Source: an uncultured Porphyromonas sp.
GTDB lineage: Bacteria; Bacteroidota; Bacteroidia; Bacteroidales; Porphyromonadaceae
NCBI RefSeq assembly: GCF_900538385.1
Contig: NZ_UWSO01000004.1
Reading direction: 5' to 3' (one strand)
DNA: 64,000 nucleotides
The notes under the pieces are model-generated. The model did no database searches. It saw nothing but the letters and a program-made list of their open reading frames with translations, and was not told the DNA's origin. The position numbers and the translations under genes were made by a program. Positions within the stretch are counted from its first letter, which is position 1; each line of letters begins with the position of its first letter. Of this stretch, positions 13,750-63,521 are shown in pieces.

Positions 13750-13774
13750 TTTCTAATCTCTAACCTCTACACCG

Positions 13775-27660: not shown

Positions 27661-27670
27661 ATCCAACAGC

Positions 27671-27860
27671 TCTCCACCGAGGAAATCCGAATTTCTTCGG
27701 TGGAGTTTTTTCCTTCCCCAGTGAAGAACGAAAAAATTCTTCGGACTTATCATTTCATTCTTCCGAAGTTTCATTTGATTCCTCCGAAGAATTTTTCATT
27801 TCTTCCGTGGAGAATTTTCATTTTCCAGCGAACTATTTGGTGTTTTCTTCGGACGCACTG
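27671..27860 (+). repeat. family A repeat copy 3
   Basis: Hairpin 'ctccaccgaggaaatccgaatttcttcggtggag' plus T6, then 'gaagaacgaaaaaattcttcggacttatcatttcattcttccgaagtttcatttgattcctccgaagaattttt...gaactatttgg'. No co-directional gene lies upstream, so the hairpin belongs to the element rather than serving as a gene's terminator. Confidence 0.75.
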
Positions 27861-27966
27861 ACGAGTAAGTCCACCGATATTGTTTCGAGCAGTTGACTTT
27901 ACAGCAGCTTTGTACGAGGCATTAATCTGCACATCAATGTTTTTTGTACTTTTGTACGAATCAATC

Positions 27967-29916: not shown

Positions 29917-29934
29917 CGTGTAACAACTTGACGT

Positions 29935-30073
29935 GTAACCCGCTGTAGGGACGCACGGTCTGTGCGTCCGTTGTATCAAAGGTTACAGCATCAAGATTGT
30001 TATCCGTTTTGGCTGGTTCGACAACGGACGCCATCCCACTAGACACGAGCCGAGAGTCCCTACAGCGGGTTAC
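29935..30073. repeat. family B palindromic MITE-like element copy 1
   Basis: Terminal inverted repeats gtaacccgctgtaggga / tccctacagcgggttac flank the internal palindromes gacgcacggtctgtgcgtc and tccgttg...caacgga. Copies lie at 52929, 55166 and 63311. Confidence 0.75.
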
Positions 30074-30107
30074 TCGTCTCATCAAGCCACACGGCTTCAT
30101 CTAGAAA

Positions 30108-37640: not shown

Positions 37641-37766
37641 TTCCATTTCCTCCGGAGGAATCGAAAAGTTCCTCCCTTGGAACTAAAAAGTTCCTCCCTT
37701 GGAACTCGAAAGTTCCTGCCTTGGAACTAAAAAGTTCCAAGAGGGGAACCATTTTTGGAACTCGTA
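37641..37766 (+). repeat. tandem array of ~20-nt hairpin units, family A-like variant
   Basis: The palindrome 'ttcctccggaggaa' is followed by 3.5 copies of 'aaaagttcctcccttggaact', each unit an agttcc/ggaact inverted repeat. Confidence 0.6.
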
Positions 37767-42222: not shown

Positions 42223-42270
42223 CACGATCAGCCGTCCACCTGCGTGGTGTGGTGAGGCTATCCCCTCAAG

Positions 42271-42312
42271 ATAGGAGCTATACCCGCGAAGGTGTAGCTC
42301 CTATTTTATTTT
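42271..42312 (+). terminator. rho-independent terminator after the PS-LRR gene
   Basis: 'ataggagctatacccgcgaaggtgtagctcctat' followed by 'tttatttt'. Confidence 0.55.
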
Positions 42313-42339
42313 CATCGCTGCTAGATGGCAATCCCGCTT

Positions 42340-42386
42340 CAGATAAATCTTCGCTTGTGCGAGTTTATTTGTACCTTTGAGAGAAT
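42340..42386 (+). promoter_or_regulatory. Bacteroidetes-type promoter (-7 box) for the S1 peptidase gene
   Basis: 'tttatttgTACCTTTGa' at 42372..42379, 26 nt upstream of the ATG. Confidence 0.45.
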
Positions 42387-42404
42387 ATCTTTCGGACTAT
42401 CCCT

Positions 42405-44777: not shown

Positions 44778-44813
44778 CCACTTAACTAGACAGTTTACTT
44801 ACACACTTAATAT

Positions 44814-45656
44814 ATGCGTACAATATCCTCTACAGCCATCACAGACTTGGTGGAGAAGCTTTGCATAGAGGCCTGTGTCAACCTATCGCCCGACATCGAG
44901 GCTGCCATGCAGCAGGGCGCAGAGCGAGACCGCTCGCCTCTAGCACGAAACGTACTGAATACCATCATCGAAAACGTTCACATAGCACGCAGTGAGCGTG
45001 CTCCCATGTGTCAAGATACGGGTATGACCGTCATCTTCGTCGACATGGGACAGGATCTGCACGTCGAGGGAGATCTGATCGAAGACGCTATCAACGAGGG
45101 CGTCCGCAGAGGCTACACCCACGGCTACCTGCGCAAGTCCGTCGTGAGCGATCCGATACATCGACACAATACGGGAGACAACACCCCCGCCGTCATCCAC
45201 TACCGCATTGTGCCTGGTGACAAGATGCATATCACCGTCGCTCCAAAAGGCTTCGGCAGTGAAAACAAAAGTGCACTTTCGATGCTTACTCCCAGCCAAG
45301 GGGTAGCCGGCATCAAGCAGTTTGTCCTCGATACCATCTCTCACGCTGGCGGCAACCCCTGTCCGCCGATCATCGTCGGCATCGGCATCGGAGGCACGAT
45401 GGAGCGCTCGGCTGAGCTAGCCAAGCGTGCCTTACTACGTCCTATCGGTGAGCGTCATCCCGATCCCGCCGTCGCTGAGATCGAGGAGGAGCTACTCCAA
45501 GAGATCAATAAGATGGGCATCGGCCCGGCCGGCTTCGGTGGAGACACCACGGCTCTAGCCGTCGCCATCAATACGGGTGCAACACACATTGCCGGACTAC
45601 CCGTAGCGGTCAATATCAGTTGCCATGCGACACGTCACGCTGAGGGTACACTATAA
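44814..45656 (+). CDS. Fe-S hydro-lyase alpha subunit (class I fumarate hydratase / L(+)-tartrate dehydratase family)
   Basis: 280 aa. 'CQDTGM' cluster-ligand motifs. It pairs with the adjacent beta subunit. Confidence 0.8.
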   Translation: MRTISSTAITDLVEKLCIEACVNLSPDIEAAMQQGAERDRSPLARNVLNTIIENVHIARSERAPMCQDTGMTVIFVDMGQDLHVEGDLIEDAINEGVRRGYTHGYLRKSVVSDPIHRHNTGDNTPAVIHYRIVPGDKMHITVAPKGFGSENKSALSMLTPSQGVAGIKQFVLDTISHAGGNPCPPIIVGIGIGGTMERSAELAKRALLRPIGERHPDPAVAEIEEELLQEINKMGIGPAGFGGDTTALAVAINTGATHIAGLPVAVNISCHATRHAEGTL

Positions 45657-45667
45657 TATATAGAGAC

Positions 45668-46225
45668 ATGGAAGAGAAAAAGATACTCAGAGCCCCCTTT
45701 ACGACAGAGATGATTACTCCGCTCAGAGCGGGAGATATGTGCTACATCTCGGGGACTATATACACAGCACGTGACGCAGCGCATCTGCGTCTTGTCGAGA
45801 TGCTAGAGCGAGGTGAGGAAATGCCCTTTGACTTTGCTGGGCAGGTCGTTTACTATGCCGGTCCTTGCCCTGCTAAGCCTGGACAACCTATCGGCTCCGT
45901 CGGCCCCACTACGGGAGGACGTATGGATGCCTATTCGCCAACGCTCATAGCGCACGGTCTGCGTGTGATGATCGGCAAGGGCTTGCGTAGCCCGGAGGTC
46001 GTTGATGCGATCAAGCAGTACAAAGGCGTTTACTTCGCCGCCATCGGTGGAGCAGCTGCCCTGATGGGCAAGTGCGTCAAGGAGGCCGAGGTGATCGCCT
46101 TCGACGACTTAGGGCCCGAAGCAATCCGCAAGCTGCGTGTCGAGGAGCTCCCCGTCATCGTAGCTGTAGACAGCCTCGGAGGTGACGTCTACTCGCTCGG
46201 ACGCTCGCAGTACGCCCGCCGCTAG
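45668..46225 (+). CDS. Fe-S hydro-lyase beta subunit (fumarate hydratase / tartrate dehydratase family)
   Basis: 185 aa. The swivel beta domain with 'GKGLRSPEV' lies 11 nt after the alpha subunit. Confidence 0.8.
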   Translation: MEEKKILRAPFTTEMITPLRAGDMCYISGTIYTARDAAHLRLVEMLERGEEMPFDFAGQVVYYAGPCPAKPGQPIGSVGPTTGGRMDAYSPTLIAHGLRVMIGKGLRSPEVVDAIKQYKGVYFAAIGGAAALMGKCVKEAEVIAFDDLGPEAIRKLRVEELPVIVAVDSLGGDVYSLGRSQYARR

Positions 46226-46275
46226 TCTGCAAGACTCAAGACACTTTATACAACAATATCCCTAGTAAAACTATG

Positions 46276-49200
46276 ATGAAAAGATTAACTCCTTTACTAC
46301 TGCTGCTCTTGGTTCTCTGCCTCCCTGCGATGGGGCATGCGAGCGAGAGCCCTTTTGCCTCAGGCGATGGTCTGAGAGAGCTAGGCGAGCCGACGATACG
46401 CTTGACCACATCTGGAGCGGTCGGGACCAACTACTCCTTCACAATCATCGGGGGGACTACTCCCATTCAGATAGACTGGGGTGATGGCACACTTGTTTCA
46501 CCCACTTCTACTATGGTCAAGGGGAAGAAGGCTGGCGACGAGATTAAGATCTATGGGGACTGCCTGTCATTTCTAGCTACAGGAGCTAAGATTACAGCAA
46601 TCACTATTGATGCTCCTGCGATGGGTATGCTATCCCTAGCAGACAATGAGCTCACGACACTAGATCTTTCCAAGACTCCAGCCATAGAGTCTCTTAACTT
46701 GCAAAACAATAAGTTGACGAGCCTCGATCTGCATGGGCTTGTATCCATTACTACGCTTAATGTAAAGCAGAATAACCTGGAGTCCCTTAACCTGTCTGGC
46801 TTAAATAAGCTGAAGAGATTGATTGCTTCAGACAATCCCGCTCTGACTTCGCTTGAAGCCTCTACGCTCACTAGTCTCAGCTCCGTACGAGCTGAAAATT
46901 GTGCCTTAGAGCAAGTATCTCTCCCAGCATCTATCACCGAGTTTTATGCAAAGGGTAACAAGCTCACTAAGCTCGGCGAAGGGGCTGTCTCTTTCCCGAA
47001 GCTACAACGTCTGAGACTACCTAACAATCAAATCACTGAGTTTACCGTAGGAGAGTGTCCGCTCCTCAACGACCTCGAGCTCGATGGCAATAAACTCACG
47101 TCTCTTACGCTTGGTTCACTTCCCGCATTGAAGACTCTATACCTTCAGAAGAATCTCCTCAGTGCGGATGCTCTCAACAAGGTTTATAATGCTTTACCTT
47201 CTGTTTCAGGGACCATCAAGGTGGCCGAGAATCCTGGCGCAGAGAAGGCTTATGGCTATATAGCTACGGACAAGGGCTGGAAGATAGACATCCTGGGCCA
47301 GGAGAATAATCTAGGTGAGCCAACGATACGCCTGACCACCTCCACAGAGATTGGAACGGACTGCTCATTTAGAATCATGGGTGATGGTAGTACGCCCATC
47401 CAGATTGACTGGGGCGATGGTACACTCACAACCGTCTCTCCTACTTCACCAGCGGCCAAGGGTAAGAAAGCTGGCGAGGAGATCAAGATCTACGGAAACT
47501 GCTCAGTCCTTATGGCTCCAGGAGCTAATATCACCTCCATAGCGATCAATTCGGAACAGCTTGGTATGCTCTCCCTAGAGAACAATGAGCTTACGACGCT
47601 AGACCACGTCAATGCGCCAAACCTTGGAATCCTTAAGATACAAAATAACAAGCTGACGAGCTTCCACTACAAGGAGCTAAAGTCGCTCTCAACCGTTGAT
47701 CTGAGACGCAACGATCTAGAGACTATCGAGCTCAGGGGCTTAGATAAACTCAAGAATCTAGATGTCTCATACAACGCTCGCTTAAGTGTCATAGACGGCT
47801 CTATAATGCCCAGTCTAACCTCCATAAAAGCTGATAGCTGCGCCTTAGAGCAGGTCGCTCTCCCAGAGCAGATCGCTGAGTTTTACGCAAAGGCCAACAA
47901 GCTCACTAAGATCGGTGAGGGGGCTGTCGCTTACCCCAAGCTGCTACGTCTGAGACTACAGGGCAACGACTTCGCTGAGCTCACGTTTGGGGAGTGCCCG
48001 CTCCTTAACGATCTCGAGCTAGAGGGCAATAAGCTCACGGCTCTTACACTAGGCACACTACCTAGTCTGAGGACGCTATTCCTCCAGGAGAACCTCCTCA
48101 GTGCGGACGCTCTCAACAAGGTTTACAATGCCTTACCGACCCTCTCTGGGACTATCAAGGTGGCCGATAACCCTGGCGCAGAGAAGGCCCTCGGTTATAT
48201 AGCTACGGAGAGGGGCTGGGAGATAGACATTCCAGGTCAAAAGAGCCAAGACCCAGATCCCGTCATTACGATAAAGACAAAGCCCGACAAGGAGATCAAC
48301 TTGGGCCTGTCTGGCTTTGCAGCCGAGAGTAAGGTGCAGATAGAGACAGACGAAGGCGTAGTCGTAGAGAAGACGATCACGAGTGGCGTGCCTCCTATCG
48401 AGAAGTACAAGTCGACGAGAGGTCTCATACGAATTATCGGACTAGTACATACGATAGACTGCTCCGAAAACGGCTCTATCGCATACGATATTGACGCCTC
48501 ACAGAGTCCTAAGCTGGTCAAGTTTTATGCTCTGCACAATACGATGACCTCTGTCAACGTCAAGGGCTGCGCTGACCTTACCTTTATCAACTGTGCGGGT
48601 AGTGAGCTCCCAGAGATTGATCTCTCAGATTGCAAGCAACTAGAGACTGTATGGCTGCCAGGTAATAAGATGATAAGCATCGACCTGACTGGGCTGACGA
48701 ACCTCCAAGAGCTTAGCCTAGAGCGCAACCTACTGACCGAGATACATGGCCTCTCAGACTGCACTAAGCTGACAGAGCTCAATGTCGCTGAGAACGAACT
48801 CACAACGCTCGTGCTCACGGGGCTGTCTAGCCTGAATAAGCTTGACTGTCGCGAGAACAAGCTAACCGCTCTCGACCTCAGCTCTTGTACGGCTCTGACG
48901 GAGGCATTCTGCTACAAGAACGCTATCAAAGAGCCTGCCATGAAGCAACTCTTCGAGAGCCTCCCCACAAGAAGTGCTAGTGAGCGTGGTGAACTCTATG
49001 CCATTGACTCTTCAGAGCAAAGCGAGGAGAATGAAGTAAACGACGCTGATGTCAAGATCGCTACTGACAAGTCTTGGCTCGTCTATGACTACAAGAACTA
49101 CGACAACAGTGGCAAGAATCCACTTGCCAACGCCCCAGTCGTCTCGGCAGATCACTATCGTCTCATGATCACAGGAGACTACATCGAGATCACTCAGACT

Positions 49201-49359
49201 ACTCCCCACGCTGTCGTGGAGCTATATGCGCTAGATGGTACGCTCCTACAGAGCGCACGTGCTGACCAAAGTGGTGAGCTGCGACTCAGCATCGCAGAGC
49301 TACCCACGGGGAGCTACCTACTCTCTGTCGATGGCGAGGCAAACAAGGTAATCCTCTAG
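46276..49359 (+). CDS. large leucine-rich-repeat surface protein with an internal ~311-aa tandem duplication and a T9SS C-terminal domain
   Basis: Signal 'LLLLLLVLCLPAMGHA'. The module 'LGEPTIRLTTS...IDWGDGTL...(LRRs)...ATDKGW.IDI' occurs twice, with nt copies at about 46381 and 47313. The C-terminus is 'LPTGSYLLSVDGEANKVIL'. Confidence 0.75.
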   Translation: MKRLTPLLLLLLVLCLPAMGHASESPFASGDGLRELGEPTIRLTTSGAVGTNYSFTIIGGTTPIQIDWGDGTLVSPTSTMVKGKKAGDEIKIYGDCLSFLATGAKITAITIDAPAMGMLSLADNELTTLDLSKTPAIESLNLQNNKLTSLDLHGLVSITTLNVKQNNLESLNLSGLNKLKRLIASDNPALTSLEASTLTSLSSVRAENCALEQVSLPASITEFYAKGNKLTKLGEGAVSFPKLQRLRLPNNQITEFTVGECPLLNDLELDGNKLTSLTLGSLPALKTLYLQKNLLSADALNKVYNALPSVSGTIKVAENPGAEKAYGYIATDKGWKIDILGQENNLGEPTIRLTTSTEIGTDCSFRIMGDGSTPIQIDWGDGTLTTVSPTSPAAKGKKAGEEIKIYGNCSVLMAPGANITSIAINSEQLGMLSLENNELTTLDHVNAPNLGILKIQNNKLTSFHYKELKSLSTVDLRRNDLETIELRGLDKLKNLDVSYNARLSVIDGSIMPSLTSIKADSCALEQVALPEQIAEFYAKANKLTKIGEGAVAYPKLLRLRLQGNDFAELTFGECPLLNDLELEGNKLTALTLGTLPSLRTLFLQENLLSADALNKVYNALPTLSGTIKVADNPGAEKALGYIATERGWEIDIPGQKSQDPDPVITIKTKPDKEINLGLSGFAAESKVQIETDEGVVVEKTITSGVPPIEKYKSTRGLIRIIGLVHTIDCSENGSIAYDIDASQSPKLVKFYALHNTMTSVNVKGCADLTFINCAGSELPEIDLSDCKQLETVWLPGNKMISIDLTGLTNLQELSLERNLLTEIHGLSDCTKLTELNVAENELTTLVLTGLSSLNKLDCRENKLTALDLSSCTALTEAFCYKNAIKEPAMKQLFESLPTRSASERGELYAIDSSEQSEENEVNDADVKIATDKSWLVYDYKNYDNSGKNPLANAPVVSADHYRLMITGDYIEITQTTPHAVVELYALDGTLLQSARADQSGELRLSIAELPTGSYLLSVDGEANKVIL

Positions 49360-49890: not shown

Positions 49891-52821
49891 ATGCAGAACA
49901 AAGGATTTGTGATCCTCTTCGCCTCTCTACTGACGATCATCTGCGCTTTCTACATCTCCTTTACCCCAGTGGTAAGGCACTACGATCAGAAGGCGCTGGC
50001 GATGACCGCAGCTGGCGAGGATGGCAAAGCGTATCTCGACTCAATGGCCAACGAGAAGGTGTGGTTTGGCTACACGCTCAAGAAAGCCCGCAACCAGCAG
50101 ATAGGTCTCGGACTAGACCTCAAGGGCGGTATGAACGTCGTCCTCAAGGTCAATGGACGTGATCTCCTGCGCAACCTCTCAGGACATAACCAGTCGCCAG
50201 CCTTCATCGAGGCTATCGATAGGGCTGCCAAGGAAGGCGCCAATGACTTCGTCGGGACTTTCGTAAAGGCTTACAAAGAGCTCGAGCCCTCAGGCTCGCT
50301 CGCGGTAATCTTTAGCAATGGTCCCCTCCGTGATGTCATCTCGCCTAAGTCTAGCGACCAGGAGGTTATCAAGGTGCTTCAGGAGAAGTACAGCAGTGCT
50401 ATCGACGCTGCTATCAACGTCCTCAAGACTCGTATCGACCGCTTTGGTGTCGTCGCTCCAAACGTACAGCGCATCGAGGGCCAGGGACGTATCCTCGTCG
50501 AGCTACCAGGTGTCACCGAGCCTCAGCGTGTTCGTGAGCTACTGCAGCGCAGTGCTAACCTACAGTTCTGGCGCACCTACACCTATGATGAGATTGCTAG
50601 CGACCTCGTCGACGCTAATAATCGTCTCACCGCTATGGCAAACGGCAACGACCTGACGCCTGCCGATACGGCTACTACGGCAGCTGACTCGACCGCTACG
50701 GTGGCTGACTCTACAGCAGTACAGACGCCAGCTTCCACAGGTGTAGAGAATGTCCTCTTTAGCAAGCTCAACGTCACCAATCGTGGTACCATCGTCGGCT
50801 ACGCTCGTCGTGCAGATCTAGACAAGATCGATGAAATGCTCGAGGAGGCTCAGAAGCAAAAGATGATCCGTGAGGATCTGATGCTCCTCTGGAGCAACTC
50901 GCCTATCAAAGATCCACAGTCTGGCAAGGAGACAGACATCTACGAGCTTTACGCTATCCGTGGTAACCGCAATGCACTCCCCGATCTAGGTGGTGAGGTG
51001 GTCACCTCGGCACGTAGTGAGGTGCGCAACGACCTAGGTCAGAACCGTCCCGTCGTCACCATGACGATGAATGATGAGGGTGCTCGTAAGTGGGCTCGCC
51101 TGACCGGTGACAACATCGGTCGAAACATCGCTATCGTCCTCGATGGTGTCGTCTACTCAGCACCTAATGTCAATAACGAGATCACGGGCGGACGCTCTGA
51201 GATCTCGGGTCACTTCACCGTCGATGAGACGACCGACCTTGCTAACGTCCTCAACTCTGGACGTATGGAGGCTTCTGTCGAGATCGAGCAGGAGAGTGTC
51301 GTCGGACCAACGCTTGGTAGTGAGTCCATCAAGGCTGGTATCATCTCCTTTATCATTGCGATCATCCTGCTGATGATCTACATGTGCCTCGCTTACGGCC
51401 TCATCCCAGGTCTTATTGCCGATGGTGCTCTGATCCTCAACAGCTTCTTCACCCTCGGTGTCCTTGCCTCTTTCCACAGTGTCTTGACGCTGTCCGGTAT
51501 TGCGGGACTTGTGCTGACGCTCGGTATGGCGGTGGATGCTAACATTCTGATCTTCGAGCGTATCAAGGAAGAGCTACGTGCTGGCAAGTCTATGACGCGT
51601 GCTATACAAGACGGTTACGGCAATGCCTTCTCAGCAATCTTTGACTCCAACCTCACGACCGTCATCACGGGTGGTGTGCTCTATGCCTTTGGTACAGGTC
51701 CTATCCGTGGCTTCGCTACGACGCTCATCATCGGTGTCATCGCTTCCTTTATCACGGCAGTCTTCTTGACACGTATCGTCGTTGAGGCGCTTGATAAGAA
51801 GGGACGTATGGACAAGGTTACCTATACAACTTTCCTCACACGCAACCTGCTAAACAACCCCACCTACAAGATCCTGGAGAACCGCAACAAGGGCTTCATC
51901 ATCTTTGGCTCTATCCTCGTGCTCGGTCTCATTGGCTCGTTCGTATGGGGTCTCAATAGAGGTATCGAGTTCTCAGGCGGTCGCAACTATATCGTTGCCT
52001 TTGAGCAGCCTGTCTCTTCGGCTGAGGTACGTGAGGCTCTGACGAAGCCCCTAGAGGAGCATGTCCTCGTCACCTCTATCGGTACGGAGGGCAATCAGGT
52101 TCGTATCTCGACCAACTATGGTATCGGTATGACTCAGGAGAGCGAAGACGAGGAGCTACTCGTCATCGGTAAGGTCTTCGAGGGCGTACAGAAGTTCCTA
52201 CCACAGGGCACGACCCAGCAGCAGTTTGTCGACAACTATGTCGTCAGCTCACAGCGTGTCAGCCCAAGTATGTCTAAGGATATCTCTCGTCAGGCTATCA
52301 TAGCGGTGCTCCTCTCCCTGATCTTCATGGGACTGTACATCTTGCTTCGCTTCCGCAACTGGGCCTTCTCGCTAGGAGCTTTTGCCTCTGTGGCTACCAC
52401 CACGCTACTCATTGTGTCTAGCTACATACTGCTCTGGCAGATCATGCCCTTCACGATGGAGCTCGATCAAAACTTCATCGCAGCGCTGCTAGCGATCATC
52501 GGATACTCGATCAACGATGTGGTCGTCGTCTTCGACCGTGTCCGTGAGACGCTACACAACTATCCCAACCGTGAGGAGAAGCTTGTGATGAACGATGCGC
52601 TCAATAGCACGCTAGCTCGTACCGTACAGACGACCTTCTCGACCTTCCTAGTGGTCTTCATCATCTTCCTACTCGGTGGAGCCTCTATGCGTAGCTTTAC
52701 CTTTGCGCTACTCATCGGTATCGTTTACGGTATCTTCTGTACGCTCTTTGTCGCATCGCCTATTGCCTACCTAGTACGCAATAAGCAGCAACAGAGGAAG
52801 CTCGCAGCAGCTAAGAAGTAA
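49891..52821 (+). CDS. secDF: protein translocase subunit SecDF (fused)
   Basis: 976 aa with two 6-TM blocks, a periplasmic P1 domain, and the fusion arrangement typical of Bacteroidetes. Confidence 0.9.
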   Translation: MQNKGFVILFASLLTIICAFYISFTPVVRHYDQKALAMTAAGEDGKAYLDSMANEKVWFGYTLKKARNQQIGLGLDLKGGMNVVLKVNGRDLLRNLSGHNQSPAFIEAIDRAAKEGANDFVGTFVKAYKELEPSGSLAVIFSNGPLRDVISPKSSDQEVIKVLQEKYSSAIDAAINVLKTRIDRFGVVAPNVQRIEGQGRILVELPGVTEPQRVRELLQRSANLQFWRTYTYDEIASDLVDANNRLTAMANGNDLTPADTATTAADSTATVADSTAVQTPASTGVENVLFSKLNVTNRGTIVGYARRADLDKIDEMLEEAQKQKMIREDLMLLWSNSPIKDPQSGKETDIYELYAIRGNRNALPDLGGEVVTSARSEVRNDLGQNRPVVTMTMNDEGARKWARLTGDNIGRNIAIVLDGVVYSAPNVNNEITGGRSEISGHFTVDETTDLANVLNSGRMEASVEIEQESVVGPTLGSESIKAGIISFIIAIILLMIYMCLAYGLIPGLIADGALILNSFFTLGVLASFHSVLTLSGIAGLVLTLGMAVDANILIFERIKEELRAGKSMTRAIQDGYGNAFSAIFDSNLTTVITGGVLYAFGTGPIRGFATTLIIGVIASFITAVFLTRIVVEALDKKGRMDKVTYTTFLTRNLLNNPTYKILENRNKGFIIFGSILVLGLIGSFVWGLNRGIEFSGGRNYIVAFEQPVSSAEVREALTKPLEEHVLVTSIGTEGNQVRISTNYGIGMTQESEDEELLVIGKVFEGVQKFLPQGTTQQQFVDNYVVSSQRVSPSMSKDISRQAIIAVLLSLIFMGLYILLRFRNWAFSLGAFASVATTTLLIVSSYILLWQIMPFTMELDQNFIAALLAIIGYSINDVVVVFDRVRETLHNYPNREEKLVMNDALNSTLARTVQTTFSTFLVVFIIFLLGGASMRSFTFALLIGIVYGIFCTLFVASPIAYLVRNKQQQRKLAAAKK

Positions 52822-52856
52822 GCTTTCCCCTACTCGCTCTCCAGTTAGAGCGGTAG

Positions 52857-52908
52857 TAAAAAAATCGGAGCCTATCCACCATCGTGTGGGTAGGCTCCGA
52901 TTTTTTTA
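52857..52908. terminator. strong rho-independent terminator after secDF (A-tract, hairpin, T-tract; potentially bidirectional)
   Basis: 'gtaaaaaaatcggagcctatccacc atcgtg tgggtaggctccgatttttttac'. Confidence 0.7.
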
Positions 52909-52928
52909 CGCCGCCGACCGCACCGACC

Positions 52929-53150
52929 GTGAAACCCGCTGTGCGGACGCACGGGGCGTGTAAACCTCATCGACCAACCCACGTCGCCTTGTAGGGACGC
53001 TCGGTCTGAGCGTCCGTTGTATCAAAGCGAGACGTGTAACGATTTGTAGGGACGCTCGGTCTGAGCGTCCGTTGTGTCAAATGTTACAGCGTCATGGTTT
53101 TAACGGAAACGGACGCACAGACCGTGCGTCCCTACAGGAGTCGTTTCCGT
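52929..53150. repeat. family B palindromic element copy 2 (contains a tandem internal duplication)
   Basis: 'gtagggacgctcggtctgagcgtccgttgt' occurs twice in tandem. It closes with 'acggacgcacagaccgtgcgtccctacagg', the reverse complement of the family B TIR. Confidence 0.7.
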
Positions 53151-53221
53151 GGTTCCGCACACCAGACTACAGGTTTCACCACTCGTCGTCCCGACGACTT
53201 CCCGATTCCTCTGGAACTATT

Positions 53222-53410
53222 TTGGGATTTCTTCCGTGGATATTTTTTATTTCCCAGGGAGGAAAGGAAAAATTCTTCGGACTTATCGTTTGATTCTTCC
53301 GAAGTATCATTTGATTCTTCCGAGGAAATTTTTCTTGCCCTCGTGGAAAATCAAAAATATCCCCATGGAGAATCGAAAATATCCACCGAGGCATCCCGAA
53401 GACCCTCGTG
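53222..53410 (+). repeat. family A repeat copy 4
   Basis: 'gatttcttccgtggatattttttatttcccagggaggaaaggaaaaattcttcggacttatcgtttgattcttccgaagtatcatttgattcttccgagg...'. Artefactual ORFs 53072..53522 lie inside it. Confidence 0.75.
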
Positions 53411-53514
53411 CGTTACGGACTTGCTAGCTGTTGAGAGACTATGTGTAGAGGCTGTTTTTGATCAAAATTCCATCGGGCGAAATGTTAACGATCGATTTTG
53501 TCAAAAAGAAAACC

Positions 53515-53561
53515 GATTTTGACAAACGGGGGGGGGGGATTTTACATACCTTTGCATCAAA
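53515..53561 (+). promoter_or_regulatory. Bacteroidetes-type promoter (-33 TTTG, G11 spacer, -7 TACCTTTG) of the Mfa-like pilus operon
   Basis: 'cgaTTTGacaaacG11attttacaTACCTTTGcatc'. The -7 box is 46 nt upstream of the ATG at 53600. Confidence 0.45.
53528..53538. repeat. homopolymeric G11 tract inside the promoter spacer of the type V pilus operon
   Basis: 'caaac ggggggggggg attttacatacctttg'. It lies between a TTTG at 53518 and the -7 box at 53547. Confidence 0.9.
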
Positions 53562-53599
53562 GATTCAACAGCTTTATAAACAATCAAACCAATTCAACT

Positions 53600-55135
53600 A
53601 TGAAAAAGTTTCTTTATGCAACGTTGGCTCTCGCCGCAGTTCTGCTCTTCGCAAGCTGCAAGAACGACAAGAACCAACCCAATGATCAGGAGAAGGCTGA
53701 TGCTTTCATCTCCTTTACTTTCAACCTACCACAAGGTGGTACAAGAGCTGAGGCTGGCAATGTCGCTGGTGCAAACGCTGGCGATACTTTCGTTGGTACT
53801 GCTGATGAGCAGGCTATCAAGGAGGTCCGCGTCGTACTTTACGATCCAAATGAAGGCATAGTTAAGTACGCCCTTACTTACAACATCACAGCAACAGGTG
53901 GTCAGGCACCTACAGGAGATGGTCTTGCTGACGCCCCAGCTAGCGCAGCTACAGCAGCTAACTTTACCACAAAAGCTGAGCAGGTCGTAAGTCAAGACTA
54001 TCAGATGCTTGCTATCATCAATCCAACATCTGATGTCATCGCAGCTACCGCAGAGGGTAAGTACCTCAAGGATGCTCAGGCTGCTCTTGAGTCAACCGTC
54101 AAAGATCTATCTGCAGATGGTAAGGCTATCCTGATGTCTAACGATCGTGGCCTCGTTAAGGTTGCACCTGCTGATATGAAGGCTGCTGCAGCTGATGCCG
54201 AGGGTCATCCGATCAAGGTAAATGTAGATCGTATCCTCGCCAAGGTATACGTGGGTGGTACACCAGATCTTCCTGCTGGTGTTACATTCTCCGACACCAA
54301 GTGGGAGCTCAATACGACCAACAAGAAGACCTTTATCTATCGTCAGTTTGCCCAGGTTACGACTGGCTTAGATCAGTTTGCCCCTGAGACGGTAGATAAC
54401 AATACTGATCGCTTCGCTCGCTACGCTAAGGATCCTAACTACCTAGCTGGTGAATTTAACGAGGCAGACTTCAACTACAAGAAGGATGTCGACGTTCTCG
54501 CTAACGAGTGGGGCTTTGAAGACACTAAGGGTCAGTACTGCCTTGAGAACACGATGGATGCTGGTCAGCAGCTAAACAACCAGACTACTTCATTTATCCT
54601 GAGCGGTACCTGGAAGCCTGCAGACCATGACGGCATTTCCTTTACAAAGGGTCAGACTTGGTACAGCTATATGGGCTTTACCTTTACTGTGGCAAAGATG
54701 AAAGAGTACATCGGTATCGTAACTGATGCATCAAAAGCTGCCGAGAAAGAGATTGTTGGCACGCCAGCAGGCTTCAAGGCTGCTCTTAAGACTCTTGTAG
54801 AGGATGCTAACAGCCCAGTTGACAAGACTGAGGGAACCATCACTAAGTCTTTTGTCGCTCACAACTTCAAGGGCTATAAGGATGGTGTTTGCTACTACCA
54901 GACGAACTTAATCCGTCACTTCAACGATACTCAGTCTAGCAAGGATATGGGTTACGGTCGCTACGGTGTAGTTCGTAACAACATCTACAAGGTTACGATC
55001 AAGAAGATCTCACAACCAGGTGAGCCTACAATTGTTCCTGAAAAGCCTAATCCAGATGATCCAACGAAGCTATTCGTAGCCTTCGATATTACGATCAATC
55101 CTTGGATTGTTCGTACACAGGAGATTTCTCTATAA
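53600..55135 (+). CDS. type V pilus major subunit (Mfa1/FimA-family fimbrillin lipoprotein)
   Basis: Lipoprotein signal 'LLFASC'. 'ISFTFNLPQGGTR-AEAG' parallels the FimA/Mfa1 N-terminal strand and Arg maturation site. The C-terminus 'ITINPWIVRTQEISL' resembles the donor-strand region of type V pilins. 511 aa is Mfa1-like. Confidence 0.65.
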   Translation: MKKFLYATLALAAVLLFASCKNDKNQPNDQEKADAFISFTFNLPQGGTRAEAGNVAGANAGDTFVGTADEQAIKEVRVVLYDPNEGIVKYALTYNITATGGQAPTGDGLADAPASAATAANFTTKAEQVVSQDYQMLAIINPTSDVIAATAEGKYLKDAQAALESTVKDLSADGKAILMSNDRGLVKVAPADMKAAAADAEGHPIKVNVDRILAKVYVGGTPDLPAGVTFSDTKWELNTTNKKTFIYRQFAQVTTGLDQFAPETVDNNTDRFARYAKDPNYLAGEFNEADFNYKKDVDVLANEWGFEDTKGQYCLENTMDAGQQLNNQTTSFILSGTWKPADHDGISFTKGQTWYSYMGFTFTVAKMKEYIGIVTDASKAAEKEIVGTPAGFKAALKTLVEDANSPVDKTEGTITKSFVAHNFKGYKDGVCYYQTNLIRHFNDTQSSKDMGYGRYGVVRNNIYKVTIKKISQPGEPTIVPEKPNPDDPTKLFVAFDITINPWIVRTQEISL

Positions 55136-55165
55136 TCCCTGAGTACACTTTGCTTGTCGATTAGC

Positions 55166-55333
55166 GAGACGTGTAACCCGCTGTAGGGACGTACGAGACG
55201 TGTAACGATTTGTAGGGACGCTCGGTCTGAGCGTCCGTTGCATCAAAGGTTACAGCGTCAAGGATTTAACGAGAACGGACGCACAGACCGTGCGTCCCTA
55301 CAAAGGGTTACACGTTTGAGCGGGTTACACGTC
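55166..55333. repeat. family B palindromic element copy 3
   Basis: The outer TIR gacgtgtaacccgct / agcgggttacacgtc is perfect. The internal 'gtagggacgctcggtctgagcgtccgttg' and 'acggacgcacagaccgtgcgtccctaca' match the family. Confidence 0.75.
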
Positions 55334-55414
55334 ATCGACAGCAATACTATCCTATGAGGGGTTGAATGTTCCCCTCATAGGAACTATTCACACAAAAGAG
55401 GTCTAAGACTCACG

Positions 55415-56416
55415 TTGACTATGGTACCACATACGCTATCTCGATCGAGACTATTATATATAGGAGTCATGCTCCTGCTGAGCTGGAGCTTCGTCTCTTG
55501 TGACAAGTGCATCTATGAGGATCTGTCCACCTGCCCGCTCCGTGTGCAGCTACGCTACGACTACAATATGCAGTACGTAGATCGCTGGCATCGCGAGGCA
55601 GAGGATGTGCATCTCTACATCTTCGACAAGACAGGGCACCTGGTCTCGGAGATGACTGATGCGGCTGCACCCTATGCTGAGGGGCAGACCTTCGAGCTAC
55701 AGCTCGCCCCGGGCGACTACTCCATCGTAGCGCTCTGCGGCCACCGTATGGGTACCCTCTATCAGGAGAGCAAGCTACAGGTCGGCACCTCGACCATGCA
55801 GGATCTGCTCATACAACTCTCGAGAGCTGAGGACAAGCGGATCGCCGCTGAGCTGCCACCACTACTCTATGGTATCTCCAAGGAGGTCCAGGTGCTGGGC
55901 GATGGCAGCCGGCTCATCGTCGTGCCGATGGCTAAGTGGACCAACAGTATACGCCTCGTCATGCAGGATCTCTCTGAGGGTGGCAAGTCTAACATTAAGG
56001 TCGACAACTACGACTTTAAGATTACCGCTCCCAACGGTCGCTACAACGGCGCTGGCGAAGTACTCACCGACGACGTACTCACCTACACCCCGTACTATGC
56101 TGAGCAGGTCAAGGGGTCGGGCGGTATCGCTGTCGAGCTCAACACCCTCCGCCTACTGACCAACCAGGATCAGCGACTTATCATCACCGAGCGCGCTACG
56201 GGCGATGAGCTCCTCAACATAGATCTGCTGTCGCTACTGCTGCAGACGAAGTTCTACGCGAACAACAAGCTCTCCGATCAGGAGTACCTCGACCGTGAGG
56301 ATCACTACGCCGTCATCTTCGCTTTCGATGGTCGCCCCGTGACGCGAGAGACTTTCCTAGCGGTGAACGTATGGATCAATGGCTGGCTCATCCGTGAGCA
56401 AGACCATAATATATAA
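55415..56416 (+). CDS. type V pilus anchor-like subunit (Mfa2/FimB-family lipoprotein)
   Basis: 333 aa with lipoprotein signal 'LLSWSFVSC' and a pilin-like C-terminal strand 'VNVWINGWLIREQ'. Its position is second in the operon. Confidence 0.55.
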   Translation: MTMVPHTLSRSRLLYIGVMLLLSWSFVSCDKCIYEDLSTCPLRVQLRYDYNMQYVDRWHREAEDVHLYIFDKTGHLVSEMTDAAAPYAEGQTFELQLAPGDYSIVALCGHRMGTLYQESKLQVGTSTMQDLLIQLSRAEDKRIAAELPPLLYGISKEVQVLGDGSRLIVVPMAKWTNSIRLVMQDLSEGGKSNIKVDNYDFKITAPNGRYNGAGEVLTDDVLTYTPYYAEQVKGSGGIAVELNTLRLLTNQDQRLIITERATGDELLNIDLLSLLLQTKFYANNKLSDQEYLDREDHYAVIFAFDGRPVTRETFLAVNVWINGWLIREQDHNI

Positions 56417-56444: not shown

Positions 56445-57758
56445 ATGACGAAATGCAATCTATATAGCATACAAGGAGGCTCCCGCACGATCCTTGCGTG
56501 GCTGCTCTCCGCGGTGCTCCTGCTGACGGGGCTAACTAGCTGCGTCAAGGAGGATCCATCCGCCTGTCCGCCTGGTCAGGGGGACTTCTACCTCTCGATG
56601 AGCGTGGCGCCGCAGTCGACCTTCCGTCAGGGGGAGGTGCCTCTGTCTGAGCTACAGGAGAAGCTCAAAAATGCAGAGAATAAGGTCAAGTCTGTACGTG
56701 TCCTCGTCTTCGACCACAATACGGGCGAGTGTCTAGTCAACCAAGTCTTAGGAGGCTATACACAGCCTAAGGACAATGTCACTCCTTGGAGTCACCCAGT
56801 GATGATCCCGAAAGGGATCCAAAGCTTTGACTTCTACTTCGTCGCCAATGAGGCTTCCAAAACCTACAACCTGACGACAGCCCTGCAGGGTGTCACCGAA
56901 CGGGGGCAGCTCTACTCGCTCTCTGGGTTGACGCAGATCCCCTGGCAACCGGAGTTTCTCCCCAGCTTAGCGGATGGTGGTAGCGGTGAGGACGACCTCA
57001 TCCCGATGACCGCCATCTGTCCCAACGTCAGCATCGATGCCATCAAGCAGATGCTCGGAAAGGGCACCGAGCCAGACCCATACCGCTTCCTAGCCACACC
57101 GACGGAGCGACATCCCGTGCGTCTGACGCGTGTCCTGGCGCGTATCGACATCACGATGCCCGACATGATTGCCAACAGCGTGCTGGGCGACCCCACCTCG
57201 GATCAGGTGCTTGTGCTGGACTATATAGAGGACTTTCAGATGGCTCTATATAATGTACCTCGTTACTTCGCTCTCTTCGCCTCTCGCTACTACGACGAGA
57301 ACCAGTGGACCACAACGCTCTACAATCCTATCAACTCCAACTACTACCGGGCTCCTCAGGACGGGCAGGACTGCTACTATATAGAGCGGGACAAGAACAA
57401 GGTGCGTCGCAATATGATTAGCACTGAAAGCGCCGGTCAAGCTATCGGTGAGCTCAGGACATCCGACTACTACACGACGCTCTACGTACCGGAGTTTATC
57501 CGCCAGACGAGTGCCGATGCGGGGCTAACGCCCGACCAATTGGCAGCGATGCAGCTCAGGCTCACCTTCCAGGTCAATGATTGGGACCCCAAGCACCGCA
57601 ATGGCTATCAAGTAACCAGGCACCCGCTCGTCGACAAGTTTGACGACCGCAACACGGAAGAAACTGGTCAGCTTGCAGCACAGAATGCGGGCGTGAGCAC
57701 CTACTCCGTCATCCGCAATACTTGGTACCAGATCAAGATCACGCAGGTAGACTTCTAG
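56445..57758 (+). CDS. type V pilus accessory subunit (Mfa3-like lipoprotein)
   Basis: 437 aa from the ATG at 56445. Lipoprotein signal 'LLLTGLTSC' and C-terminal 'NTWYQIKITQVDF'. Confidence 0.5.
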   Translation: MTKCNLYSIQGGSRTILAWLLSAVLLLTGLTSCVKEDPSACPPGQGDFYLSMSVAPQSTFRQGEVPLSELQEKLKNAENKVKSVRVLVFDHNTGECLVNQVLGGYTQPKDNVTPWSHPVMIPKGIQSFDFYFVANEASKTYNLTTALQGVTERGQLYSLSGLTQIPWQPEFLPSLADGGSGEDDLIPMTAICPNVSIDAIKQMLGKGTEPDPYRFLATPTERHPVRLTRVLARIDITMPDMIANSVLGDPTSDQVLVLDYIEDFQMALYNVPRYFALFASRYYDENQWTTTLYNPINSNYYRAPQDGQDCYYIERDKNKVRRNMISTESAGQAIGELRTSDYYTTLYVPEFIRQTSADAGLTPDQLAAMQLRLTFQVNDWDPKHRNGYQVTRHPLVDKFDDRNTEETGQLAAQNAGVSTYSVIRNTWYQIKITQVDF

Positions 57759-57817
57759 TTTCGTGTCCCAATGCCGCACTCTCTCCCCTTACCCATCTAT
57801 CTTATGTCCCATACGCT

Positions 57818-60800
57818 ATGAAACGATATAGATACATCACCCTCTCCCTCCTTCTCCTCCTTCTGTCGATCTCTGCGCTCTCCGCGCAGAAGACATCCCA
57901 ACAAGGCTCAGATAAGGATGGGAACTTCCATTTTGAAGTGACGACGACCCCCTCTTATTGTCAGAATGAGGGTACGATGGAGGTTAAGCTACTTACACCA
58001 TTTTGGGGAGCTCCGCTAGCTCTCTCTCAGATAGAGAGGGTGGAGTACGAGGTCAAGGATGGGGAAGGTCATAGTTACACTCAGGGTTACAAGCCAGCGC
58101 CAGCTCCTACAGAGGCACTTCTGATCGAGCAACTACCAGGGCGCGAGGACTACAGTATCTCTATTAGACTGATAGCTAAAGAAGGAATAGGCAAGTCTGA
58201 CGTTGAGACCTTCCTCCGCTGGAATGCAAAGGTTGAGAACAAGTATGTAGCGCTGGAGGTGACCCAGGAGAAGTTTGATGCCTATAGGTTGCCTTGTAGA
58301 CCGTACGGTAGCTTTCATATCGTAGCGCGAGGGGGTACGGAGAGACCTCCCGTCTTGAATATTAAGACCCCCAGTGCTCTTACGGCTAAGAAGATGCAAC
58401 CCACTAAGCGGGAGGTCAAGGGTGACACAACCCTCTACCACTTTGAGTATAGCGGGGCACTACCACAAGGCACTTACGAATATACTTTAGAGAGTGACTG
58501 TCGAGAGACTACTGCCAAGTCGTTCACCGTATATGGTCCTACGACCAATCTGCCTACGGTGCCATCGGATCTCAAGATCCCCTTCGGCATCGACATCATG
58601 AGTGGTGAGGGTTGCGCTAGTAGCATCAGTGCGTTTGGAGCCAGCTTCGATAAGGATAAGCCAGAGCTACGTGAGCTCTTTAAGGAGATCAATAAGGGCT
58701 ACCAAGGAGATGCGGAGAGACTTTTTCCTGAGTATGCAGACTCTTTCCCCTCTACCTTTATCAAAAACTACGAGGTAGCTGTCGTCACTCAGCAAGAGTA
58801 TGCAAAGCTCCAGCAGGGTACGCTAGACGCCAGCACGCTCCTCTGGAGTAGTCAAACGGGATCTCTCACGAAGGTCGACGCCAATGACTCGGAGAGTGGT
58901 GGTGTCAGCATCTCTTATAGACTGCCTCAGTCGATGTCTCTACAAGAGCTTCGTACGCAGCAGGCACTCCCAGCTGCCGTGCTGATACGTGTCAAGAGAC
59001 CCAACGAAGGGTGCAACGACTATATCACCATACCCATTACTGTGGACTTGGACTTTCACAAGAATCGCTTTGAGATCCTTGAGACAGAAGACGCCTCTGA
59101 CTGCTCCATAGGTCAGATTATATGGTTCCAAGGGTGGAACTTCTGTACGCTACGCTTTAAGTACTACGAGCTACCAGACGGTTCTGACAAGCCCGACCCA
59201 TCGGCTACGCCTATCCACACTTCAGATGATTTTGGTCCAGCAGTCTCTACTTCGATAGACAAGCGATACACTTTTGAGGGATATGACCCGACGAAGCGCT
59301 ACTACGTCGAGATAGAGGGCACGGATCTCTATGGCAATCCCATCATACCCAAGCCTAGCCTCATCCTAGCCCCCACAAACAAAAAGCCTATAAAGAATCG
59401 TCTCTACGACTTCTCTAGCATCTACGCCCACCTGCCTCAGCCGATGCTGGATAGAATAAAGCTTGGTAGTCTTACCGCTTATTTAAGTCCAGGTTATCAC
59501 ACTTATCTTTTTTCCTTTTACGGGAAGTCTCTCAATGCTATGGCTGGCATGGAAATCACGCTTGTCGAGGCTCCCGAAGGGTATGAAGAGTATCGCCGTA
59601 CGTGTGAGAGCTACTACTTCAATACGCCCAATCCTACGGATGCTGAAAATCCTTATGGTGGTGGTATGATAGGGCTGGGAGAGAAGATCAAAATGTCCAA
59701 CACCTTTACAGGTCCTGGGGGGACTGGCACCCCTGAATACTTTTTCCCATTTAGGTTTATCTATAAGGTAGGCAAAAACGGAGAGCGCATAGTCTATCCT
59801 TACAAAGACAACTATTCTAAACCCTCTCCGCTTAAAGACATTCTTACTAAGGATCCAGAGAAGGATGCTTATTTGGAGAAGCATCCTATGCCTCGTGGCA
59901 TCTACCGTCTCAAGTTTGAGCATCCTTGTCAGCCGGGAGAGTCCTTCTATATAGATCTAGATATGAGTGAGCCAGACTTCAAGCCCGAGCTTACGGAACT
60001 CATTAAGCCGGTGGTGGATCGAACCTCTTGTGATGAGGTGCGTGTCTACCCCTTTGCTGATGGTCGCCTAGACTATGCTATAAATAAGGAGGGTAAGCCT
60101 CGCAATATTATCTTTTATGTTACGCTTGCTGGAGGTCAAAAGAAGTGGCTCTACTTTTACCCCAAGGATCGTGATGGCAATCCGATAGATCATACTAAGT
60201 TCTATATTCCTGTCAAAAGTGTAGATCTCCCGCTCACACTGAATCTTCGCTACGTCTATCCAAAGCCTCGCTGGCAGTGGATAAAGTGGGATAAGCCGAC
60301 GTCTACTTCAGTCAACCCCATTGGGGTCAATCAGTTTGTCAAGGGAGAGCTGGAGGGAGGAAATGTAGGTGATGGATATTACAAATTACCTCTTGATGGG
60401 TACAATCCAAACAATGACCAAGACGATTGGGGTGAGGATGGCTTTTCGTGGTCTTCTTGGTCTGCAGAGTCGTTTGTCCCTTGGATTTCAGTTGATGTGC
60501 CTATAGATACAAAAGATCTGCCCCCCTCGTACGCACGTCCTACTTACGTAGGGTATCGCTGCTCCAAGGAGATGGGCTATATGGAGTTTAAGCTGATCAA
60601 TATCCCGAACAAGGTCGGTACCGTGGTACTCAAAGATGGAGATAAGGTCATCATGAGCTCAAAGATTGAGGAGTTGCCCGAAGACCTGATGGTTCGCTGG
60701 GATCTTACTGCCGAGTTGGGTAGTGAACTCAAGAATGAGTACAGGCTGGAGATTATAACCAGTCTATGTGGTGAAGCAAATATGCAGACGGAGAAGTTTA

Positions 60801-63169: not shown

Positions 63170-63180
63170 ATCTTTTAGAA

Positions 63181-63300
63181 ATTAGAAGTTAGAGGTTAGT
63201 GGTCAGAGGCACTGGTACTCCTAGGAGTGCTGGTGCCTCTGCTGGTGTTAGAGCTATCGGAGGTAATCAGAGGTATCGGAGGTAATCAGAGCTATCGGAA
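63181..63300. repeat. family C tag-rich low-complexity and tandem repeats with an imperfect long hairpin
   Basis: 'agaaattagaagttagaggttagtggtcagaggcactggtactcctaggagtgctggtgcctctg' forms a hairpin. It is followed by 2.5 tandem copies of 'tatcggaggtaatcagagg'. Confidence 0.45.
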
Positions 63301-63310
63301 CGAATCGGAG

Positions 63311-63470
63311 CGAGACGTGTAACTATCACGTCGCCCTGTAGGGACGCACGGTCTGTGCGTCCGTTGTCGAACAACGAAACGTGCAGCCGATCGTTCTGAC
63401 AGCTTGATGCCGTAACCTTTAACGGGGACGGACGCAATCCCACTAGACACCAGCCGTGCGTCCCTACAAG
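63311..63470. repeat. family B palindromic element copy 4
   Basis: 'ctgtagggacgcacggtctgtgcgtccgttg...gacgcaatcccactagacaccagccgtgcgtccctacaagg'. It shares the internal 'atcccactagacac' with copy 1. Confidence 0.75.
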
Positions 63471-63521
63471 GAGTCGTCAGCTCCGATCGCCTCCGACTCA
63501 CCACGATGAGTGTTCGGTCTG

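Follow-up and report, generated by a model that had tools for sequence, protein, structure and literature searches.

The intergenic region between secDF and an Mfa1-type (type V) pilus operon of an uncultured Porphyromonas sp. (positions 52822-53599 of a 64,000-nt stretch of contig NZ_UWSO01000004.1, hereafter the 64-kb window, to which all coordinates refer) is a mosaic of a terminator, two families of dispersed repeats and a promoter that contains a hypervariable G tract, and it is structurally polymorphic among related genomes. These 780 bp are the exact interval from the secDF stop codon (52821) to the ATG of the major pilin gene (53600). We regard it as likely, although far from settled, that this gap consists of the secDF terminator, selfish or neutral repeats, and a promoter with a probable G-tract switch. 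The bidirectional terminator hairpin should insulate the pilus operon from secDF read-through, and the repeats, which we call families A and B, would be selfish or neutral passengers in permissive intergenic DNA. The operon's own promoter would reside in the last ~110 bp, which hold the CGATTTTGnCAAA motifs, the G tract, TACCTTTG and the leader. Slippage of the tract during replication would change the distance between the upstream motif and the -7 box and would thereby switch or tune pilus transcription.

A first-pass annotation of this DNA had listed five modules ahead of the pilus operon (a terminator, the second copy of family B, the fourth copy of family A, a G11 homopolymer and TACCTTTG), and all five are present in that order and at the positions it gave. 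The gap and the genes that border it are organised as follows.

49891-52821, plus strand: secDF, 976 aa (Pfam SecD_1st, SecDF_P1_head and SecD_SecF_C on an identical product)
52855-52914, both strands: terminator-like bidirectional hairpin with A7, a stem of ~22 bp and T7 (RNA fold)
52926-53027, plus strand: degenerate left-end fragment of family B (52926-52953) and a partial copy with a hairpin at 52991-53015 resembling repetitive extragenic palindromes (REPs) (nhmmer 52957-53027, E 1.7e-11)
53030-53146, plus strand: complete short copy of family B (nhmmer E 6.2e-33; exact core matches)
53202-53404, plus strand: family A copy 4, a ~200-nt imperfect palindrome of 21-22-nt units (ATTCTTCCGAAGTATCATTTG) (nhmmer E 3.6e-57 on the plus strand, 1.8e-27 on the minus strand)
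53493-53505 and 53514-53526, plus strand: two direct CGATTTTGnCAAA motifs spaced by 21 nt, putatively an activator or upstream promoter element (sequence reading)
53528-53538, plus strand: G11 homopolymer, 1 nt 3' of the second CGATTTTGnCAAA motif and ending 8 nt 5' of the -7 box
53547-53554, plus strand: TACCTTTG, which fits the Bacteroidota -7 box TAnnTTTG (sequence match)
53600-55135, plus strand: major pilin gene, 511 aa, signal peptide MKKFLYATLALAAVLLFASC of the lipoprotein type (Pfam Fimbrillin_C, 2.3e-25)

Behind the terminator, family B (52926-53146) is separated by a 55-nt unique spacer from family A (53202-53404), and ~90 nt of unique sequence then lead to the 3' end of the gap, where the two CGATTTTGnCAAA motifs, G11, ATTTTACA, TACCTTTG and a 45-nt leader precede the pilin ATG. 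The hairpin 3' of secDF folds with -48.6 kcal/mol on the plus strand (z -14.0) and with -41.9 kcal/mol on the minus strand (z -9.5); it was missed by a scan for sigma-70 promoters and simple terminators, a scan that is ill-suited to Bacteroidota promoters. The contigs with which we compared the window are designated by L numbers. A search of genome contigs gave 42 loci with a best SecDF match of 98%, the window's own genome not being among them. The close relatives are Porphyromonas uenonis strains and uncultured Porphyromonas metagenome-assembled genomes (MAGs), whose SecDF proteins are 86-98% identical to that of the window; the window SecDF itself is 96-98% identical to SecDF of P. uenonis and of uncultured Porphyromonas. 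The comparisons assign the window to the P. asaccharolytica/uenonis group, and within it putatively to P. asaccharolytica. In ten close-relative loci, the terminator hairpin is the sole module of the gap that aligns 3' of secDF (82-97% identity over 36-81 nt). Homologues of the pilin carry the NCBI name 'Mfa1 family fimbria major subunit'.

The consensus of Bacteroidota promoters comprises TAnnTTTG at -7 and TTTG near -33. Since the G tract ends 8 nt 5' of the -7 box, it would by this consensus occupy the spacer/-33 region; the transcription start is a predicted position. TACCTTTGC occurs six times in the window against 0.27 expected, and five of the six sites lie directly upstream of genes or tRNAs. 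TACCTTTG is unchanged in all contigs that cover the pilin upstream region, sister lineages included, and the CGATTTTGnCAAA motifs are unchanged in all conspecific contigs. Apart from tract length, the last ~110 bp are the invariant part of the gap across the contigs of the species.

G11 is the only homopolymer of at least 9 bases in the window, and in 1.2 Mb of Porphyromonas loci a run of at least 8 G or C turns up only once in about 100 kb. The tract had been called hypermutable from the window sequence, and comparison bears this out: across 24 related loci and the window it ranges from G8 to G12 in eight haplotypes (C-G8-T, C-G9-T and C-G10-T; T-G9-T; G10-T; and G10, G11 and G12 on the plain flank). 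The occurrence of several lengths on one flank background points to repeated independent slippage. Locus L002 and the window, both metagenome-derived, differ over 22,932 nt by no mismatch and by one gap, which falls in the G run; L047, L050 and L051 show the same pattern, with the G run as the sole difference. The clonal samples include SRR1215278 (G11) and SRR1215918 (G10).

Homopolymers of at least 10 G are error-prone in Illumina libraries. One might hence read the length differences as noise of sequencing or assembly, and it fits such a reading that all tract data stem from consensus contigs and that the window-type clones differ by G10 versus G11 only. However, a lineage shows the same lengths again in independent samples and with different assemblers (C-G8-T in 5 samples, G10 in 11 loci), G12 is present in both an ENA assembly and a Logan assembly, and the five length values exceed the expected error of +/-1; moreover, substitutions in the flanks define backgrounds that each carry several lengths. 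The reproducibility of tract lengths within lineages argues against sequencing noise, and we consider it highly improbable that the hypervariability is anything other than biological.

Sister lineages carry, at the same place, two to three copies of a 21-nt repeat (CCGAAAATGTCAAAC), a non-repetitive 20-nt segment and then TACCTTTG, and have no G tract. The tract is specific to the lineage of the window, in which it replaces the non-repetitive segment of similar length; the distance from the upstream motif to the -7 box is 18, 19 or 20 nt in this lineage, depending on tract length (20 nt with G12 on the plain flank), and is fixed at 20 nt in the sisters. L071, in which the promoter of the orthologous pilus operon is without a G tract, has a G9 tract (4435-4443) at the edge of the family A copy that precedes this operon.

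Phase variation through a homopolymer within a promoter is exemplified by the poly-C tracts of fim2/fim3 in Bordetella pertussis and by porA/opc in Neisseria. In Treponema pallidum, a poly-G tract is present in the tpr promoters (PMC7864442). The Porphyromonas region resembles these three systems in that a long G/C homopolymer separates the core box of a surface-adhesin or pilus gene from promoter or activator elements upstream of it, that its length is polymorphic between near-identical strains, and that the spacing shifts in 1-nt steps; it differs from them in that the promoter is of the Bacteroidota type (TAnnTTTG), that it precedes a type V (Mfa1-family) pilus operon, and that the tract is lineage-specific. 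By analogy, the G tract probably switches or tunes the expression of the Mfa1-type pilus through its length, and we view it as a good candidate, one open to testing, for control of a type V pilus by strand slippage. The Mfa1 fimbriae of Phocaeicola vulgatus undergo phase variation by an invertible promoter (PMC12940148). Such invertible fimbrial promoters are found in this bacterial order, Bacteroidales, and with a surface structure of this class, and on/off heterogeneity is the expected outcome; in contrast to them, it is the homopolymer that varies here, and the orientation of the promoter is constant. We rejected an invertible promoter for the window operon, given that no inverted repeats flank the promoter and that every contig with this promoter displays a single orientation.

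The middle of the gap is taken up by A and B, which are, as had been proposed, unrelated families of dispersed repeats. Family B has four copies in the window; the one in the gap is indeed the second, another lies at 29929-30078, and the remaining two are associated with the pilus operon.

55155-55335, plus strand: family B copy 3, located between the pilin and anchor genes and consisting of one copy nested in the ends of another (nhmmer, core matches)
63313-63477, plus strand: family B copy 4, in the gap that separates the last gene of the operon from the gene after it (repeat search, nhmmer)

The family B core GTAGGGACGCnCGGTCTGnGCGTCC occurs seven times in the window against 0.00 expected, and three of the seven are located in the gap (52991 and 53046 on the plus strand, 53111 on the minus strand). 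Each unit is made up of a GTAG head and GGACGCaCGGTCTGtGCGTCC and forms a 21-nt hairpin with a 9-bp stem; single hairpins fold as RNA with -15 to -16 kcal/mol (z about -3). The GTAG head is present on all seven window units and on 36 of 36 units from 300 kb of related loci, retrieved with a pattern anchored on GTAGGGACG. The family B hairpin is structure-constrained. Stem variants among these 36 units are limited to a compensatory pair (A..T or T..A), all other variation being confined to the loop, and the orthologous B copy of L065 displays a compensatory stem swap. Units face each other across 35-70 nt, as in the inverted doublets 53046+/53111- and 55212+/55277-, and the element as a whole is bounded by 14-nt inverted repeats (GACGTGTAACCCGC and GCGGGTTAC(A/T)CGTC). 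The ends of the copy upstream in the window (29930-29958 and 30050-30078) are 90% complementary over 29 nt, and nested ends are seen at 55155-55335. Within the gap, the complete short copy contains two inverted GTAG-headed hairpins, 53046-53070 (+) and 53111-53135 (-), and the reported internal duplication is evident from the 95% identity of 52989-53027 with 53044-53082. The 236-nt family B block folds as DNA into one long hairpin (-67.6 kcal/mol, z -7.4).

With these features, family B possesses the anatomy of a REP or REPIN (REP doublet forming a hairpin) with outer inverted repeats like those of MITEs (miniature inverted-repeat transposable elements). Its likeness to the REPs, REPINs and bacterial interspersed mosaic elements (BIMEs) of Escherichia coli and Pseudomonas extends to the 9-bp stem, the 3-5-nt loop, the GTAG head, the inverted pairs that produce a longer hairpin, the extragenic position, the clustered or nested copies and the compensatory stem variation; furthermore, an IS110-family insertion abuts one copy, and REPs are documented targets of insertion sequences (ISs), those of the IS110 family included (PMC1525189; PMC11208160). 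Unlike these systems, family B occurs in Bacteroidota, and its units are embedded in a ~115-165-nt element with 14-nt terminal inverted repeats (TIRs; GACGTGTAACCCGC), which is more MITE-like. The likeness to MITEs resides in these terminal repeats and, for family A, in the imperfect palindrome formed by the whole element.

The family A copy in the gap is, as had been counted, the fourth of four, the others being located at 6786-6982, 13771-13970 and 27666-27865. Its unit GATTCTTCCGAAG is found 17 times in the window against 1.4 expected, TTCTTCCGAAG is present in many units, and the program TRF reports a period of 21 at 53272-53323. As DNA, copy 4 folds with -36.4 kcal/mol (z -4.1); family A copies usually open with a hairpin and a T-run. 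Family A has much in common with the BrickBuilt repeats of P. gingivalis (PMC4596501): both are Porphyromonas repeats that are dispersed, strictly intergenic, clade-restricted and non-coding, that form spacer-less arrays of ~21-23-nt units, that vary in copy and unit number, and that affect assembly. Family A differs in being much shorter (~200 nt), in forming a long imperfect palindrome overall, and in that no IS-like TIRs were identified. Homology to BrickBuilt was considered and dismissed, there being no match in the window to the 23-nt unit AGAYCATARTATCCTCTCRTRTG with up to 3 mismatches or to the TIR GAGACCTTTGCA with up to 1. A divergent intergenic region of the window (37647-37734) contains TTCCTCCCTTGGAACTAAAAAG, a 22-nt unit with a TTCC...GGAA palindrome, four times in tandem; this array is separate from family A, with units of similar flavour. 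Rfam, searched over the whole window at the gathering threshold, returned two tRNAs only, and an E-value threshold applied to the gap gave sub-threshold miRNA-like hairpin matches; families A and B correspond to no known Rfam RNA family.

With nhmmer, both families were detected in all close loci (L001-L012, L027, L046-L081), and neither was detected in ~30 loci of more distant Porphyromonas, one weak match excepted; among the loci sampled, A and B are restricted to the P. asaccharolytica/uenonis clade. Every copy in the window is intergenic, at about one element per 16 kb, and of the ~11 intergenic regions that exceed 250 bp, ~8 hold A, B or a related repeat. Since most long intergenic regions are repeat-bearing, the stacking of A and B in one gap is to be expected by chance; our own estimate of the probability that at least one gap is shared by the two families by chance is ~0.9, and in L012 they are adjacent in another intergenic region. 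The special significance attached to the stack in the first-pass annotation is not sustained by these figures.

The same annotation had offered, as one of two explanations, that the region is a built-up regulatory region. In such a stack, A and B would serve the pilus operon as functional cis-elements; they might, for instance, act as extra terminators or insulators, as arrays bound by proteins (TTCTTCCGAAGAA palindromes every 21 nt) or as hairpins that stabilise RNA. Several observations speak for this: the module order is constant in all conspecific contigs that span secDF and the pilin gene, A copies open with a hairpin and a T-run, A and B are stacked upstream of the orthologous operon in three lineages, the analogous BrickBuilt repeat has promoter activity (PMC4596501), and the B copy that follows the pilin gene and precedes the anchor gene has a REP-type hairpin that could give rise to differential expression. 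However, A and B are also present in unrelated gaps, where their neighbours are housekeeping genes, a thiamine operon and a tRNA region; lineages that keep the operon differ in how many copies they have, in the order and orientation of these copies and in how far they lie from the promoter; deletions of 22 nt and 128 nt within A are tolerated; and the in-operon B copy is missing from L071. A purpose-built stack is hence improbable in our judgement. Families A and B are probably without a dedicated function, and are ordinary in kind, best seen as dispersed REP/MITE-like passengers. As regards the nested B copy inside the operon (55155-55335), it is present in L067 and not in L071, where the gap measures 165 nt; a REP-type hairpin at this position could attenuate transcription or stabilise the 3' end of the pilin mRNA and in this way set the pilin:anchor ratio.

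Far from being identical and module-complete in all relatives, the region varies across contigs. Within the species (contigs with identical SecDF or the same pilin), the order terminator-B-A-promoter is kept at 95-100% identity, and the differences reside in the repeats: one 22-nt A unit is missing from L060-63, and 128 nt are missing at the centre of the A palindrome in L059. The indels of L059 and L060 have short direct repeats or the hairpin base at their borders and occur within long contigs that stem from other cohorts and assemblers. Three further loci (L001, L003 and L055) display alternative junctions in contigs that otherwise have 0-2 mismatches to the window over 10-13 kb. L001 ceases to match the window where B ends on the right, and the L003-type junction, which is represented by 10 contigs, departs from it inside B. 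In L055, a metaSPAdes contig, the FimE gene is joined to the pilin gene via a hybrid A copy (11750-12330) that is an exact chimera of the window A copy and of the A copy between FimE and the thiamine operon (L053 11750-12503), with the crossover in a 57-nt stretch identical in both. The default maximum k of metaSPAdes is 55. An inversion between inverted A copies and a k=55 assembly chimera may equally well account for L055. Insertion of a fim cluster between secDF and the pilin gene was rejected as an explanation of this contig, because FimE is normally followed by the thiamine operon and because the junction is an A hybrid. In the sample ERZ916914, the secDF contig (L003 13217-13447) leaves the window sequence at 53106 and continues into a different B half and 120 nt of unmatched sequence, a tail that matched nothing in any fetched locus; the pilin contig (L049 1-23) begins at 53084, each kind being represented by ~10-12 contigs. 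Either a structural variant within B or an assembly break caused by the repeat may account for this.

Between lineages, the upstream neighbourhood of the operon changes altogether. Only the terminator and an unrelated 4-gene operon come after secDF in L004, L008 and L027 (P. uenonis 60-3, DSM 23387 and a related MAG). L067/L069 have the arrangement secDF-terminator-B-B-A-B and lose their collinearity with the window at 53359, inside A, beyond which they diverge; in L071 and L079-81, the pilus operon stands behind a topoisomerase gene with a B fragment, A, B and B in between. One B body is present in L067 and absent from L057, and L067 has an extra B to the right of A, deletion and insertion being indistinguishable in these comparisons. 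In L072-74, a ~1.45-kb IS110-family element (PF01548/PF02371) begins directly after the ...GTGCGTCCCTAC of a B copy, 340 nt 5' of the orthologous pilin gene. In L072 (146-1600) it encodes a 345-aa transposase with DEDD_Tnp_IS110 and Transposase_20 domains and has a ~250-nt 5' non-coding region. One insertion site of this element is visible, and its ends are unrelated to A and B; insertion into a REP-like repeat may be RNA-guided. The downstream flank of the operon (LptD_2, rhomboid) is identical across all contigs. The idea that the operon is a cassette inserted between the B copies at 53146 and 63313 found no support, as L001 holds no simple deletion of the operon and the downstream flank is constant.

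Hence, the operon is unstable at its upstream border, with breakpoints that coincide with A and B. The hairpins and the dispersed homology of the two families would promote unit slippage, deletion at the palindrome centre, gain and loss of copies, IS insertion and recombination, and instability driven by A and B in this manner would explain the lineage differences at this border.

The second explanation of the first-pass annotation, a landing pad that serves as a hotspot of recombination or insertion, finds suggestive backing only, from the one IS110-family insertion that directly abuts B and from the presence/absence of B copies. The junctions of L001, L003 and L055 may be artefacts. The contrary view holds that there is no hotspot, the within-species junctions being artefacts and the between-lineage differences the slow divergence of a non-essential spacer. 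It gains from the fact that L001, L003 and L055 are of the same clone (0-2 mismatches over 10-13 kb) with breakpoints exactly in A or B, that the 57-nt crossover stretch of L055 is just above a k of 55, that the reciprocal junction was not seen, that many contigs end inside repeats (L003, L049, L057, L073, L074), and that co-occupancy by A and B is expected by chance. Yet the A indels of L059 and L060 are found in long contigs of other cohorts and assemblers, independent lineages show four different upstream neighbours of the same operon, the breakpoints being at A or B, the IS110-family insertion abuts B in three contigs, and the L003-type junction recurs in 10 contigs. On balance, we think it unlikely, though not to be dismissed lightly, that the region is free of enhanced instability.

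In weighing our preferred reading of the gap as a terminator, passenger repeats and a promoter with a probable switch, a number of points have to be set against it. The link between tract length and expression is drawn by analogy only, and tract lengths come from short-read consensus assemblies, in which some homopolymer miscalls are possible. The conserved module order within the species could reflect function rather than recent common descent, and the opening hairpin and T-run of A, as well as B inside the operon, could have a terminator, attenuator or RNA-stabilising effect. The alternative junctions of L001, L003 and L055 may be assembly artefacts at repeats. Neither a RAYT (REP-associated tyrosine transposase) nor an IS with matching ends was identified for A or B. 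A RAYT (Y1 transposase, PF01797) was not noticed in the fetched DNA, of which no systematic scan was made. Inspection of B1, B3, B4 and A1-A4 revealed no flanking direct repeats that would represent target-site duplications.

A more far-reaching proposal can be put forward tentatively, and we rate its prospects as somewhat short of even. In it, G8-G12 would be a true slipped-strand switch or rheostat for the Mfa1-type (type V) pilus of human-gut Porphyromonas of the asaccharolytica/uenonis group, and A and B would provide portable homology and IS110 targets for the exchange of pilus-operon alleles (pilins 56-98% identical) and promoters between lineages. In the literature searched, there was no report of homopolymer phase variation in Porphyromonas pili, and phase variation of type V pili was described via invertible promoters only. 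If the proposal is true, a homopolymer switch would be a mechanism not yet described for these main adhesins of Bacteroidales, a second one that is simpler than promoter inversion, and it would explain strain-to-strain differences in adhesion among clinically watched gut and urogenital Porphyromonas. In L079-L081, a pilin (P0127) that is 85% identical to that of the window is found behind a tract-less sister promoter and the topoisomerase gene. Another pilin, with 65% identity (P0178), is found behind secDF, the pilin family spanning 56-98% identity. The contexts of P0127 and P0178 indicate that pilin alleles, promoter types and upstream neighbours have been shuffled. Families A and B mark sites at which synteny and pilus alleles change, and any comparison of MAGs from this clade has to recognise them; they also break short-read assemblies, here and at other loci, and yield spurious calls of open reading frames (ORFs), such as a 142-aa 'gene'.

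The latter ORF (53094-53522) is called by gene finders in L002, L046 and L065. It is annotated as a gene in several assemblies and is intact in most conspecific contigs, as might be expected of a real small protein. Nonetheless, it has no Pfam match, its translation is of low complexity, and it covers the end of B, the whole of A and the spacer; the indels of 22 nt (L060) and 128 nt (L059) are not multiples of 3, its 5' half is replaced in L055, and gene finders did not call it in L047 and L051, although both are identical to the window there. We thus give almost no credence to a protein product. The ORFs inside the gap (53072..53522) are repeat artefacts, as had been noted from the window sequence: they lack Pfam matches, and the 22/128-nt indels in conspecific contigs break the frame.

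Downstream of the pilin gene, the operon continues with an Mfa2-family anchor gene (55415-56416), a gene for a protein of 437-459 aa and a gene for one of 1783-1815 aa. The last of these (57722-63169) has no Pfam domain and may encode a novel tip adhesin. On the other side of secDF, a series of genes for large leucine-rich repeat (LRR) and type IX secretion system (T9SS)-type surface proteins occupies 37974-49359, and a gene for a 1028-aa LRR protein contains a 300-nt internal direct repeat that is 75% identical (46855-47154 and 47794-48093). In L065 (511-1063) and L067 (426-978), a HigB-like toxin/HTH_3 antitoxin pair replaces a large LRR gene 5' of secDF, which indicates that the other flank of secDF is variable, too. 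An intergenic segment of ~180 nt in L001 (16537-16719) is 92-96% identical to non-syntenic segments in L009, L012 and L027; it could be a conserved small RNA or one more dispersed repeat. A third class of motifs, consisting of short degenerate TCTAA/TTAGAG and TCCGAT/ATCGGA repeats, adjoins the 3' ends of genes and copies of A and B at the following sites.

13745-13770, 27550-27660 and 63170-63310 of the window: third motif class
4915-5000 of L067: third motif class
4200-4235, 4445-4470 and 4770-4830 of L071: third motif class

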